NCBI GenBank assembly: GCA_965205975.1 | Contig: OZ242195.1 | Coordinates: forward strand, 1,344,001 to 1,408,000 | Origin: Candidatus Latescibacterota bacterium | GTDB taxonomy: Bacteria > Latescibacterota > UBA2968 | Reading direction: 5' to 3' | Length of the DNA: 64,000 nt | Shown here: piece by piece, positions 47,879-50,355 of the stretch | Layout: every line of letters starts with the position of its first letter | Numbering within the stretch: position 1 is the stretch's first letter | Program-made: the position numbers and the translations under genes | Notes under the pieces: generated by a model | Told to the model about the DNA's origin: nothing | Seen by the model: the letters and a program-made list of their open reading frames with translations, nothing else | Databases searched by the model: none

Positions 47879-47974
47879 GGGTGGGGTATCCTGTTCTTCC
47901 TTGCATCACTGGATAGAACCATTCCAGTGCAGGCTCTGCTTATCCTGATCCTTTTTTCTTGTCTGATCTTTCAC

Positions 47975-48405
47975 TTTCCTGTAGGAAGCCACGTCCTTTG
48001 GGCGTGGTCAGAGATAGTTGGCTTTGCCGTTAAGCCGTTTTGTAGGTATATTTCGCAGGTGCTATCGTAGCGCACACAAAGGCACTCTCTTTTGAGAGTA
48101 AACGGTTTCAGTGTGGGATAGCACACAAAACCCTCTCTGTGATGTTAGTTGAGAGGCAGATTTGGCAACAACAGCGGTATGGATTGCGGTTGTGTTGTCG
48201 TCAAATCTGATGGGCACAGTTAGGGGCCTGACCTCCCAAACCTGCGGTAGCAATCCGCTGCTGTCAACTGCCCTGAAGTCTCGCCACGCAGTGAGCGGTT
48301 TAAACCTAAGCCCTTGCTCGGATATGCTGCATTGCCTCCAATGGGTGGGTCAAGCACCTGGGGTGTGGCAGGGACAAGCCACCTGCTCAGCAGGTGGTGG
48401 TTGAC
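47975..48405 (+). mobile_element. non-autonomous IS200/IS605-family element (PATE-like), no tnpA or tnpB
   Basis: Left end TCAC|...GAAG plus hairpin CCACGTCC-TTT-GGGCGTGG; right end CAAG plus hairpin CCACCTGC-TCA-GCAGGTGG...TTGAC|; both guide/cleavage pairs fit the IS608-type rule. Confidence 0.8.
48024..48052 (+). promoter_or_regulatory. internal sigma70-type promoter of the element
   Basis: TTGCCG-17 nt-TATATT, 6 nt before the first stem. Confidence 0.6.
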
Positions 48406-48425
48406 GAATCACTAACTTGTCGAAA
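48058..48425 (+). ncRNA. candidate extended omegaRNA/reRNA with 3' guide
   Basis: Multiple stems; GTCAAC(48263)/GTTGAC(48400) and CCCTG/CAGGG scaffold closure; putative guide GAATCACTAACTTGTCGAAA. Confidence 0.65.
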
Positions 48426-48501: not shown

Positions 48502-50265
48502 ATGCGAAAGAAAATAGGTCGAATTTTGGCCTGGATTGGTGGGATTACGGTTGGGCTGGTCGTCCTGACCGTCTTGTCAATTGTATTGCTATCTGGCGAA
48601 GATCCCGTGCCCGATCAGGTGATTTTGGAGATCAACCTGGAGCAGGGGGTTGCGGAGTATGTACCCGAAGATCCATTTGCAAAGTTAATCTCAGACGATG
48701 TGCGCTCGCTACGCGATGTGGTAGGTGCTTTAGACGCGGCGGCTTTAGATGACCGCGTTGTGGGGTTGCTGGCCCGAGGGGGCGGAGCACCGATGGGCTT
48801 TGCGCAGGCACAAGAGATAAGAGATGCGGTTCTGGATTTTGGAAAAAGCGGAAAACCCACCGCGATTTTTGCCGAGACATTTGGCGAATTTGGATCGGGA
48901 AATGTCGGATATTATCTGGCGACAGCATTTGAGCACATCTATCTTCAGCCCTCGGGTGATGTGGGTTTGATCGGACTGGCAATGGAGCATCCCTTTGTGA
49001 AGGGAACATTGGATTCGCTTGGGATTGGTGTGCAGATGGATCACCGGTATGAGTATAAAAATGCGATGAACCTATATACCGAAACCGAATTTACAGATGC
49101 GCATCGCGAGGCGAGTGAGGTACTTTTGAAGTCGATGGTCGATCAGATGGTCCTGGGGATTTCACAAGGGCGAGATACAACGCCCGAAGCCGTGCGCGAT
49201 CTCATTAACCGCGGACCTTTTTTGGCCTTATCTGCCCATGCCGAAGGCCTGGTAGATAGCCTGGCGTATTGGGATGAAGTGCGCGACCTGGTGAAGCGCG
49301 AGCATGGCGAAGATACCAAATGGTTGGATATAAAAAATTATCTCAAGCGCATTGATGAAAAACCTTATGGTGAAGGGACAAAGGTGGCGTTGATATACGG
49401 CGTGGGACCTGTGCTTCGCGGGAAGAGTGCCTACGATCCCTTATATGGGTCTGCTACAATGGGCGCGAGTACCCTGACCAAAGCTTTTCGCGATGCTGTG
49501 AAGGATAAGGATGTACGTGCAATTTTGTTTCGAATAGACTCTCCCGGTGGGTCTTACGTTGCTTCTGACGCGATCTGGCGCGAGGTTGCCAAAGCTAAGA
49601 AGGCCGACAAACCAGTAGTTGTATCAATGGGTAATGTGGCCGGTTCTGGGGGATATTTTGTGGCGATGAATGCCGATAAAATTGTGGCGCAACCCGGTAG
49701 CATCACGGGATCCATTGGGGTATTAGCGGGAAAGTTTGTGACAACTGAGTTTTGGGAACGTCTGGGCATAACCTGGGATACGGCGCAAGTGGGAGAAAAT
49801 GCGCTGATATGGAGCACGGGTGTAGAATTTACACCCGAACAATGGGCGAGATTTCAGACGTGGTTAGACCGCATTTACGAAGATTTCACGGCAAAGGTGG
49901 GCGAAGGACGCAATATGTCACGGGCCGATGTTCACGCTGTGGCAAAGGGACGAATCTGGACAGGGGAGGATGCAAAATCGCACGGTCTGGTCGATGAATT
50001 GGGCGGCATGAAGACCGCGATGCGTCTGATTCGGGAGGCATTGGAATTGGAAGCTGATGCATCTCTCAACCTCGTGGTATTTCCGAAAGAAAAGACGTTA
50101 ATAGAACAGGTGATGGAAAAAGGCCTGATCCGCACGATGAGCAATGGCGATGCGCTGGTGAGACTCATCACAGAGTTGCAACCCGTTTTTCGCTTTGCGC
50201 GCACAGTGGGGCAGCCGCGACAGGTTTTGGAGATGACACCCGTAGATATTCGGTTAGACGAATAG
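48502..50265 (+). CDS. sppA: signal peptide peptidase SppA (67K type)
   Basis: YYLATA, EYKNA, RIDSPGGS, SMGNVAGSGGY, ITGSIGV, GRIWTG. Confidence 0.95.
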   Translation: MRKKIGRILAWIGGITVGLVVLTVLSIVLLSGEDPVPDQVILEINLEQGVAEYVPEDPFAKLISDDVRSLRDVVGALDAAALDDRVVGLLARGGGAPMGFAQAQEIRDAVLDFGKSGKPTAIFAETFGEFGSGNVGYYLATAFEHIYLQPSGDVGLIGLAMEHPFVKGTLDSLGIGVQMDHRYEYKNAMNLYTETEFTDAHREASEVLLKSMVDQMVLGISQGRDTTPEAVRDLINRGPFLALSAHAEGLVDSLAYWDEVRDLVKREHGEDTKWLDIKNYLKRIDEKPYGEGTKVALIYGVGPVLRGKSAYDPLYGSATMGASTLTKAFRDAVKDKDVRAILFRIDSPGGSYVASDAIWREVAKAKKADKPVVVSMGNVAGSGGYFVAMNADKIVAQPGSITGSIGVLAGKFVTTEFWERLGITWDTAQVGENALIWSTGVEFTPEQWARFQTWLDRIYEDFTAKVGEGRNMSRADVHAVAKGRIWTGEDAKSHGLVDELGGMKTAMRLIREALELEADASLNLVVFPKEKTLIEQVMEKGLIRTMSNGDALVRLITELQPVFRFARTVGQPRQVLEMTPVDIRLDE

Positions 50266-50355
50266 ACGAATAGACGAATAGACGAATAGACGAACCCCAC
50301 CCAACCACTCCAAGTTAGTCAGAACTGCGTCGCTGATTCGTAGATTCGCTGATTC
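50255..50355. repeat. octamer-arm repeat element, copy B (inverted relative to copy A)
   Basis: (TAGACGAA)5 - CCCCACCCAACCACTCCAAG core - (GATTCGYW)~3. Confidence 0.85.

Follow-up and report, generated by a model that had tools for sequence, protein, structure and literature searches.

A 431-bp IS200/IS605-type element without open reading frame (positions 47975–48405, forward strand) was identified in the window, a 64,000-nt stretch of the Candidatus Latescibacterota bacterium assembly GCA_965205975.1 (contig OZ242195.1), and the structured RNA leader of this element is a selected tnpB-mRNA element combined with lineage-specific helices. As judged from sequence comparison, the core of the first leader domain (domain A) has a counterpart, by homology or by convergence, in an RNA element within the RuvC-II codons of the cognate tnpB mRNA, and this match suggests how gene-less elements borrow or control a nuclease that they do not encode. 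The element itself is a PATE, a protein-less IS1341-type transposon of a kind already known. The module, its conservation inside tnpB and an antisense loop further downstream are apparently new, as no description of them was found in Rfam or in the literature covered, which included few of the subscription papers.

Ends, copies and distribution of the element

The source genome was found to contain three copies of the element with at least 99% identity and with different flanks, one of them without the left end. Among 20 further genomes of the genus, 7 contained full-length homologs, at 98–99%, 88–89%, and 68–70% identity. All 15 orthologous sites examined were without the element, and no target duplication was seen. 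The transposon-adjacent motif (TAM) TTCAC lies outside the element at 47970–47974 on the forward strand and was present at 11 of the 12 full-length copies listed (ATCAC in the remaining one); it is also the TAM listed for AmaTnpB, which belongs to the same clade, in the accessible part of its description. The TTCAC motif, the differing flanks and the empty sites show the insertion 3′ of a TAM, the lack of duplication and the mobility that characterize PATEs. An exact TTCAC before the insertion point (47962–47974) was found in none of the 15 empty orthologous sites (L283–L297), two of which came near, which means either that the allele entered by the element was rare or that empty alleles with the TAM have been purged. 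Two element variants only 71% alike (L035 in G016 and L018 in G020) occupy the same orthologous position with 3′ flanks 91% alike, either by replacement through gene conversion or homing or by two insertions at one site.

The left-end subterminal hairpin (47986–48007, forward strand) was 80–87% identical to the left ends of five tnpB-only elements (L021, L028, L029, L030, and L040), and this left end was common to a tnpA element of another genome (L036 in G006) as well. As in PATEs, left and right subterminal hairpins are common to tnpA/tnpB elements, and the interior contains no protein gene, its short ORFs showing no similarity to TnpB. A search of the source genome (98% complete) gave no Y1 transposase; the tnpA with the same left end is that of L036. 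Eight TnpB-domain matches were detected in the source genome, of which two are intact cognate tnpB genes with all three RuvC motifs, and the cognate TnpBs match NF040570 (guided_TnpB type).

Near position 937500 of contig C1 of the source genome, a cognate tnpB copy (L004/L012) carries an internal deletion that removes RuvC-II and has kept both ends and the omegaRNA. Lone copies of the left-end hairpin were seen on the same contig at 3068196, 4766344, and 1220998, flanked by A and T runs in a placement like that of bidirectional terminators, and two other tnpB families (near 500665, 844341, 4019808, 2506298, and 1122291) have long hairpin-rich leaders reaching from the left end to the start codon. 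In the window, a Phd-type antitoxin gene (TIGR01552; 47527–47808) that is not followed by an intact partner ORF lies shortly upstream of the element, and an 8-nt tandem repeat (50246–50293) is located directly 3′ of the sppA stop codon.

Promoter, transcript and fold of the leader

The sigma-70-like promoter TTGCCG-17-TATATT proposed in the initial annotation was found in place (48024–48052, forward strand; −35 at 48024–29, a 17-nt spacer, −10 at 48047–52), with an inferred start near 48058–59. The promoter match is weak evidence on its own, because one site was found compared to 0.6 expected in shuffled sequences. A −10-like hexamer (4–6 of 6 bases) was present 9–12 nt before the core in 14 of 19 elements from outside the Latescibacterota, which argues that the RNA starts with domain A; in six elements of the Latescibacterota lineage, it lies 23–27 nt before the core, just before helix P1.

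Metatranscriptome contigs from four runs in three studies covered 48015–48407 at a depth of 4–122, with little on the flanks; such contigs give neither strand nor ends and may hold DNA carry-over. Single contigs span both the leader and the omegaRNA scaffold. One contig stops 17 nt beyond the right end and is followed by A's, a weak hint of a trimmed guide, and the flank preceding this A-run had no match in 21 genomes. The view that the structured region begins at the promoter and runs on into the omegaRNA was borne out by the promoter-proximal core across elements and by the spanning contigs.

All stems proposed for 48058–48262 were located: GTGCTATC (48059–66) with GATAGCAC (48117–24), the hairpin ACTCTC-TTTT-GAGAGT (48084–99), CCTCTC (48132–37) with GAGAGG (48151–56), and CAGATTTG (48157–64) with CAAATCTG (48202–09). 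The 211-nt stretch gave a folding z of −3.54, and none of 200 shuffles was equally stable; 25 random 211-nt pieces of the window reached −2.7 at best. Among homologs, a 39-pair structure was 98% paired in six variants down to 68% identity, with compensatory changes on both sides in 13 of the 39 pairs. Its covariation score was 0.409, a value reached by none of 500 shuffled alignments (0.209), and was at most 0.109 when the structure was slid. These controls flatter the structure, since the sequences are related and RNAalifold had derived four of its five helices from this very alignment.

In structure alignments, domain A (48059–48124, forward strand) consists of the closing helix P1 (48059–77/48111–24) around the conserved core. 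It is followed on the same strand by the lineage-specific hairpin P3 (48132–48156), which was 100% paired in the six variants with one compensatory pair, and by the long hairpin P4 (48157–48209), in which both sides had changed in 9 of 14 pairs. The P4 loop GGATTGC (48181–87) had been suggested to form a pseudoknot with GCAATCC (48250–56), and this pseudoknot or kissing helix (48181–48256, forward strand) showed all seven pairs in all six variants, including one compensatory A-U/G-C change; one of its strands overlaps an alternative local hairpin (48244–58). Where P3 and P4 stand here, 13 elements of other lineages carry a different hairpin with a GGUU/GUAAA internal loop (domain B), the match of which to the Latescibacterota element is weak (score about 10 vs. 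15–23 elsewhere). The hairpins at 48132–48209 are thus specific to the Latescibacterota lineage, and only about 50 nt, domain A, are kept across phyla.

A conserved core in ORF-less elements of four phyla

The conserved core, AAAGGCA followed by hairpin P2 (48085–98) and YAAACGGYT, occupies 48078–48109 on the forward strand and was found, besides its tnpB counterpart, in ORF-less elements of four phyla and in metagenomes. In similar elements from Chloroflexota, Actinomycetota, Cyanobacteria and metagenomes, it was likewise situated at the transcript start. A search with the pattern AAAGGCACTC-N-GAGYAAACGG gave 29 genome loci, 14 of which were judged real (9 from the Latescibacterota lineage, 2 from Chloroflexota, 2 of Rubrobacter type, and 1 from a cyanobacterium) and 15 were dropped as chance; one of the 14 (L087) comes from an unpublished genome (G065), and no other count depends on this locus. 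With a looser pattern, 82 loci were obtained from metagenomes, of which 23 were judged real and 59 dropped as chance. Four of five cyanobacterial and one of two Chloroflexota pattern matches were set aside as chance, as were the covariance-model matches L250, L263, L265, L303, and L305, with L302 being uncertain. Two matches to the core pattern on viral contigs were both coding and due to chance, and a second core pattern gave no match to viral contigs.

Every clear match to the module sits in an IS200/IS605-type ORF-less element or a truncated one, and no TnpB ORF was ever found inside the domain-A elements or between module and right end. Automatic calling gave a right-end hairpin for 21 of the 26 elements tested, two of these calls being misplaced relative to the known true ends. 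For the pairs of domain A in 25 sequences, the covariation score was 0.241 compared to 0.152 after shuffling, and P1 was just 70% paired in this set because its register differs between lineages. A covariance model of domain A recovered the known copies in 61 relatives and added one element to them; it also found 20 copies in a single Chloroflexota genome and, in 150 Chloroflexota genomes, one clear further member. The domain A class is wide but rare, and since only 14 of 29 genome matches were real and the 150 Chloroflexota genomes yielded one new member, most PATEs manage without the module.

Counterpart of the core in tnpB mRNA

With filters off, the covariance model of domain A weakly matched eight cognate-type tnpB loci from 24 sources at one and the same site (10–12 bits, E 0.4–1.7), namely the codons just after the RuvC-II glutamate (E-D-L-K-G-I-R...K-R-F-R). 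The RuvC-II codons read AAGGCA, 14 nt, AAACGGTTTC. Of 34 distinct tnpB genes of the clade, 33 contained NGGYT, in two reading frames (RF/RL in 14; TV/TA/RA/KA/KV in 19). A 4-bp hairpin after the first block was found in 21 of the 34 genes, compared to 6.1 (maximum 14) after synonymous recoding, and NGGYT within a fixed window in 22 of 34, compared to 3.0 (maximum 8); these counts overstate independence because the genes are related.

With a matrix built from 25 tnpB mRNA segments from outside the Latescibacterota, domain A came first in each of 26 elements, out of about 355 positions, a result close to one test because the core is nearly invariant by the way in which the elements were found. 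The reverse matrix, trained on the elements, was applied to about 1030 positions per gene and put the RuvC-II site at the top in 16 of 34 genes and among the top 10 in 25 of 34. The first block is only loosely kept in tnpB mRNA, and the P2 hairpin is not kept in Latescibacterota tnpB (0–1 of 4 pairs). No covariation was detected across 22 genes between the motif and the omegaRNA stem with which it could pair, the base before GCC being A, C, T, or G regardless, which argues for a protein or tertiary contact and not for plain antisense.

In the accessible part of the AmaTnpB report by Nety et al. (PMC10278001), nt 825–875 of the mRNA, next to RuvC-II, lower DNA cleavage in a 1:1:1 mix with protein and omegaRNA; the inhibition is put down to pairing of this segment with the omegaRNA, and TnpB is described as cutting off 5′ sequence to release the omegaRNA. 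The inhibitory fragment (826–875), as given there, starts within the first block and includes the hairpin and the second block. As a separate observation, the start codon of cognate tnpB genes, including L008, L009, L021, and L023, lies about 7 nt after a −10-like box, suggesting leaderless mRNAs.

The omegaRNA scaffold, its guide and an antisense loop

The 3′ part of the element (48212–48405, forward strand) is a predicted TnpB-binding, cleavage-guiding omegaRNA, with a 77% match to the 3′ end of tnpB elements. Its parts are the stem 48212–16/48269–73, GTCAAC (48263–68) pairing with the terminal GTTGAC (48400–05), and the right-end hairpin (48379–97). The scaffold thus ends at the right end, holds a 3′ hairpin and a pseudoknot-type pairing, and is homologous to tnpB 3′ ends; its layout is that of the processed AmaTnpB scaffold, as far as the latter is given in the accessible part of its description. 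A GGGCA/TGCCC-type stem precedes GTCAAC in native omegaRNA scaffolds, and the pair showed a compensatory change in one of six variants. Since GGGCA at 48212–16 pairs with TGCCC at 48269–73, the segment 48212–48262 belongs to the omegaRNA core. The initial annotation had treated 48058–48262 as one extra domain; the last 50 nt or so of this stretch are part of the omegaRNA core.

Host flank read through from the right end would serve as guide (48406–48421, forward strand). It differs among copies and is identical or nearly identical to the sequence at the empty orthologous sites, and no TAM-plus-guide target for the three guides of the source genome was found in that genome. In other domain A elements (L117, L126, L142, L152, L168, and L176), the omegaRNA is closed by a GTAAGC/GCTTAC-type pairing and not by GTCAAC/GTTGAC, which amounts to a compensatory switch of the end motif. 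In cognate tnpB genes, the RuvC-III codons were seen to form the hairpin that heads the native omegaRNA.

A loop insert in the scaffold (48308–48323, forward strand) runs antisense to the final codons of the cognate tnpB mRNA, with 16 of 16 nt matching three tnpB copies of the source genome. The target lies at the 5′ border of the native omegaRNA and takes in the 5′ strand of that RNA's stem. An antisense match of 12–23 nt to the same site was present in all six variants; none of 1000 shuffles reached a 15-nt match, and in the source genome the 16-mer is limited to the three elements and, in antisense, the three cognate tnpB copies. Outside the lineage, no convincing match antisense to tnpB was found in 20 elements, for few of which the cognate tnpB was at hand. 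Co-folding of the element RNA with the tnpB 3′ end gave no antisense duplex and did not exceed the controls (−11.7 vs. −2.4 to −12.5 for controls); at equilibrium the duplex is absent because both strands sit in hairpins. No tnpB element with sense site and antisense loop in cis occurred in 61 genomes, and the loop is therefore not an obvious leftover of a cis helix.

Comparison with known RNA classes

No Rfam 15 family matched the stretch or 20 homologous loci at the gathering threshold; the homologous loci gave only miRNA-type and snoRNA scores below it, and the one Rfam match in the window was a tRNA elsewhere. An IStron or group I intron was rejected, as there was no Rfam intron match at gathering score or at E values up to 10, and the element ends in TTGAC without a terminal G. 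The IscB/IsrB omegaRNA (HEARO) was rejected for lack of an Rfam match; a search of the source genome for PF14239 (IscB) gave no match, and control genomes were equally blank. No group I, group II, or small-ribozyme model scored. The core loosely resembles part of c-di-GMP-I riboswitches, and this likeness was dropped together with those to pistol, SRP helix 8, the group II receptor, and 16S helix 24, none being backed by a model match.

For 48058–48262, tblastn and profile searches against TnpB gave E values of 2.5 or worse. The earlier statement that the stretch does not read as a decayed tnpB ORF thus holds for translated similarity, but at the RNA level the core (48078–48109) is tnpB-mRNA-like, this motif of about 30 nt being the sole part shared with tnpB. 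Two options had been offered for the stretch, a large scaffold extension or partner-protein binding module and a distinct ncRNA carried as cargo. The first is the better one, the stretch being conserved, covarying and joined to the omegaRNA, with protein binding the inferred part; cargo unrelated to tnpB does not agree with a core homologous or convergent to the RuvC-II RNA element of the cognate tnpB mRNA. Because the core matches a selected tnpB-mRNA segment reported to be inhibitory, neither neutral decay nor unrelated cargo accounts for it.

Possible functions of the module

The explanation that we tentatively prefer, at somewhat less than an even chance, is that domain A is a TnpB-binding site by which a gene-less element captures the nuclease in trans. 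A protein-less element would need TnpA in trans for movement and TnpB in trans for restoration after excision. Its own promoter would give one RNA of about 360 nt comprising domain A, the lineage-specific helices, the omegaRNA scaffold and the guide. The RuvC-II mRNA segment would be a TnpB-binding site that, in a normal element, catches new TnpB at the mRNA encoding it and does not let go before the omegaRNA has been loaded and processed; in the gene-less element, a stabilized copy of this segment at the extreme 5′ end of the transcript would act as a landing pad for TnpB, which would cut off the leader after capture. More speculatively, the antisense loop may add a tether to tnpB mRNA and block native omegaRNA folding, with ribosomes keeping the target open. 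We infer TnpB binding, RNA processing and the sign of the effect.

This explanation is supported by the cross-ranking of the matrices, the recoding controls and the overlap with the AmaTnpB inhibitory fragment, and also by the position of the module at the transcript start with no tnpB ORF downstream, the two cognate tnpB genes in the source genome and the RNA contigs. Counting against it are the weak model scores, the loose first block in the mRNA, the loss of P2 in Latescibacterota tnpB, the rarity of the module, the lack of an antisense duplex in co-folding, the restriction of the loop to one lineage, the strandless RNA contigs, and, from the accessible part of PMC10278001, a published effect that is inhibition and is ascribed by its authors to omegaRNA pairing.

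The same inhibition, the sole experiment on the mRNA counterpart in what could be consulted of PMC10278001, favors an unlikely but serious alternative, in which domain A is a brake that keeps the element's own omegaRNA inactive until TnpB processes the RNA, or a decoy that soaks up TnpB. In this case, the RNA would act as an inhibitor that damps cutting by the tnpB elements of the cell, and the antisense loop, whose target takes in the 5′ strand of the native omegaRNA stem, would silence tnpB mRNA; the lack of an exact TTCAC in all 15 empty orthologous sites would also fit. The element has, however, kept a complete omegaRNA whose stems covary and whose ends pair, and in one lineage a single genome carries 20 copies, both of which fit use of TnpB and not its blocking. 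The absence of covariation between motif and omegaRNA stem points the same way, and so does, as a weak hint of guide trimming, the RNA contig that stops 17 nt beyond the right end and then runs into A's. That the module acts on TnpB at all, a premise common to the landing pad and to the brake or decoy, is probable.

It is distinctly less likely that the leader is a generic 5′ stabilizer or folding aid which guards the RNA from 5′ decay until TnpB arrives, its likeness to tnpB mRNA reflecting origin only. P1 sequesters the first transcribed bases in all lineages, and a compact fold could result if the GCAA-type hairpin that directly precedes the omegaRNA core docked on domain B or, here, paired with the P4 loop. 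Yet for protection, a single-stranded core of 17 nt would not have to be invariant in four phyla, and the same motif would not have to be under selection midway along an mRNA. An independent cargo RNA (ribozyme, riboswitch, or host-protein sponge) without link to TnpB, resembling tnpB mRNA by chance, is more improbable still: the lack of Rfam matches for the stretch and 20 other loci, the absence of any counterpart of P3–P4 and domain B in tnpB genes (no consistent domain B site in 34 genes) and the loose likeness to c-di-GMP-I riboswitches would agree with it, but the cross-ranking against tnpB genes, the restriction of clear matches to IS200/IS605-type elements and the lack of scoring ribozyme or intron models do not. 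A neutral leftover of a deleted tnpB that folds by chance is largely refuted and very improbable, for even though the core can be read as derived from tnpB coding sequence and internally deleted tnpB copies occur in the source genome, the compensatory changes, P2 lengths that are not multiples of three, an invariant core between unrelated flanks and the lack of any other tnpB remnant on either side speak against it.

Taken in its widest form, the landing-pad explanation would mean that AmaTnpB/IS1341-type tnpB mRNAs hide a RuvC-II TnpB-binding element that enforces cis loading and that gene-less transposons of a widespread class captured it as a 5′ landing pad, with an antisense loop disabling donor guides added in this lineage. 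This combined proposal we regard as possible but rather doubtful.

Relation to known systems and implications

PATEs and stand-alone omegaRNAs, in the parts of the reports that could be consulted (10.1101/2023.03.14.532601; PMC10691335), are likewise ORF-less, with subterminal hairpins, a TAM at the left border, several copies, and a right-end omegaRNA with the flank as guide, TnpA and TnpB being supplied in trans. Unlike the PATEs as described there, the present element has a promoter-proximal, tnpB-mRNA-like module found across phyla and, in this lineage, an antisense loop. The AmaTnpB mRNA segment, as far as the accessible part of PMC10278001 describes it, agrees with the module in TnpB clade, TAM, place after the RuvC-II glutamate and a two-block motif around a hairpin; it differs in lying inside an ORF, in having been tested in one ortholog and in being thought to pair with omegaRNA. 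The conservation reported here is at RNA level and clade-wide, and the module here opens a non-coding RNA, where it has acquired a new closing helix. IStrons, which combine a group I intron with IS605/IS607, also have a large structured RNA reaching from left end to omegaRNA, according to the sections available (10.1101/2023.11.20.567912, PMC13565253). Unlike them, the present element has no group I match, lies between genes under a promoter of its own, and has C as its last base and not a splice-site G.

SINE/Alu elements are non-coding parasites whose RNA module helps capture the LINE reverse transcriptase made by an autonomous element. Under the preferred explanation, the present element would similarly be a non-coding parasite capturing the protein of an autonomous element through an RNA module; it is a DNA transposon associated with an RNA-guided nuclease and involves no reverse transcription, so that the likeness is one of analogy only. 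If that explanation is true, bacteria would have a counterpart of SINE parasitism, in which an RNA-guided nuclease is stolen by means of an RNA module dedicated to this task, and the module would be portable as an enhancer or an inhibitor of TnpB; because the clade includes the characterized nuclease AmaTnpB, it could serve as a loading aid or off-switch. A 50-nt RNA makes testable why part of TnpB's mRNA inhibits the enzyme, an effect seen a single time in vitro, and by what route stand-alone omegaRNAs acquire TnpB in trans. The module would be lost unnoticed when tnpB is recoded, and the finding shows selection on RNA structure within the catalytic-site codons of a very abundant gene family.
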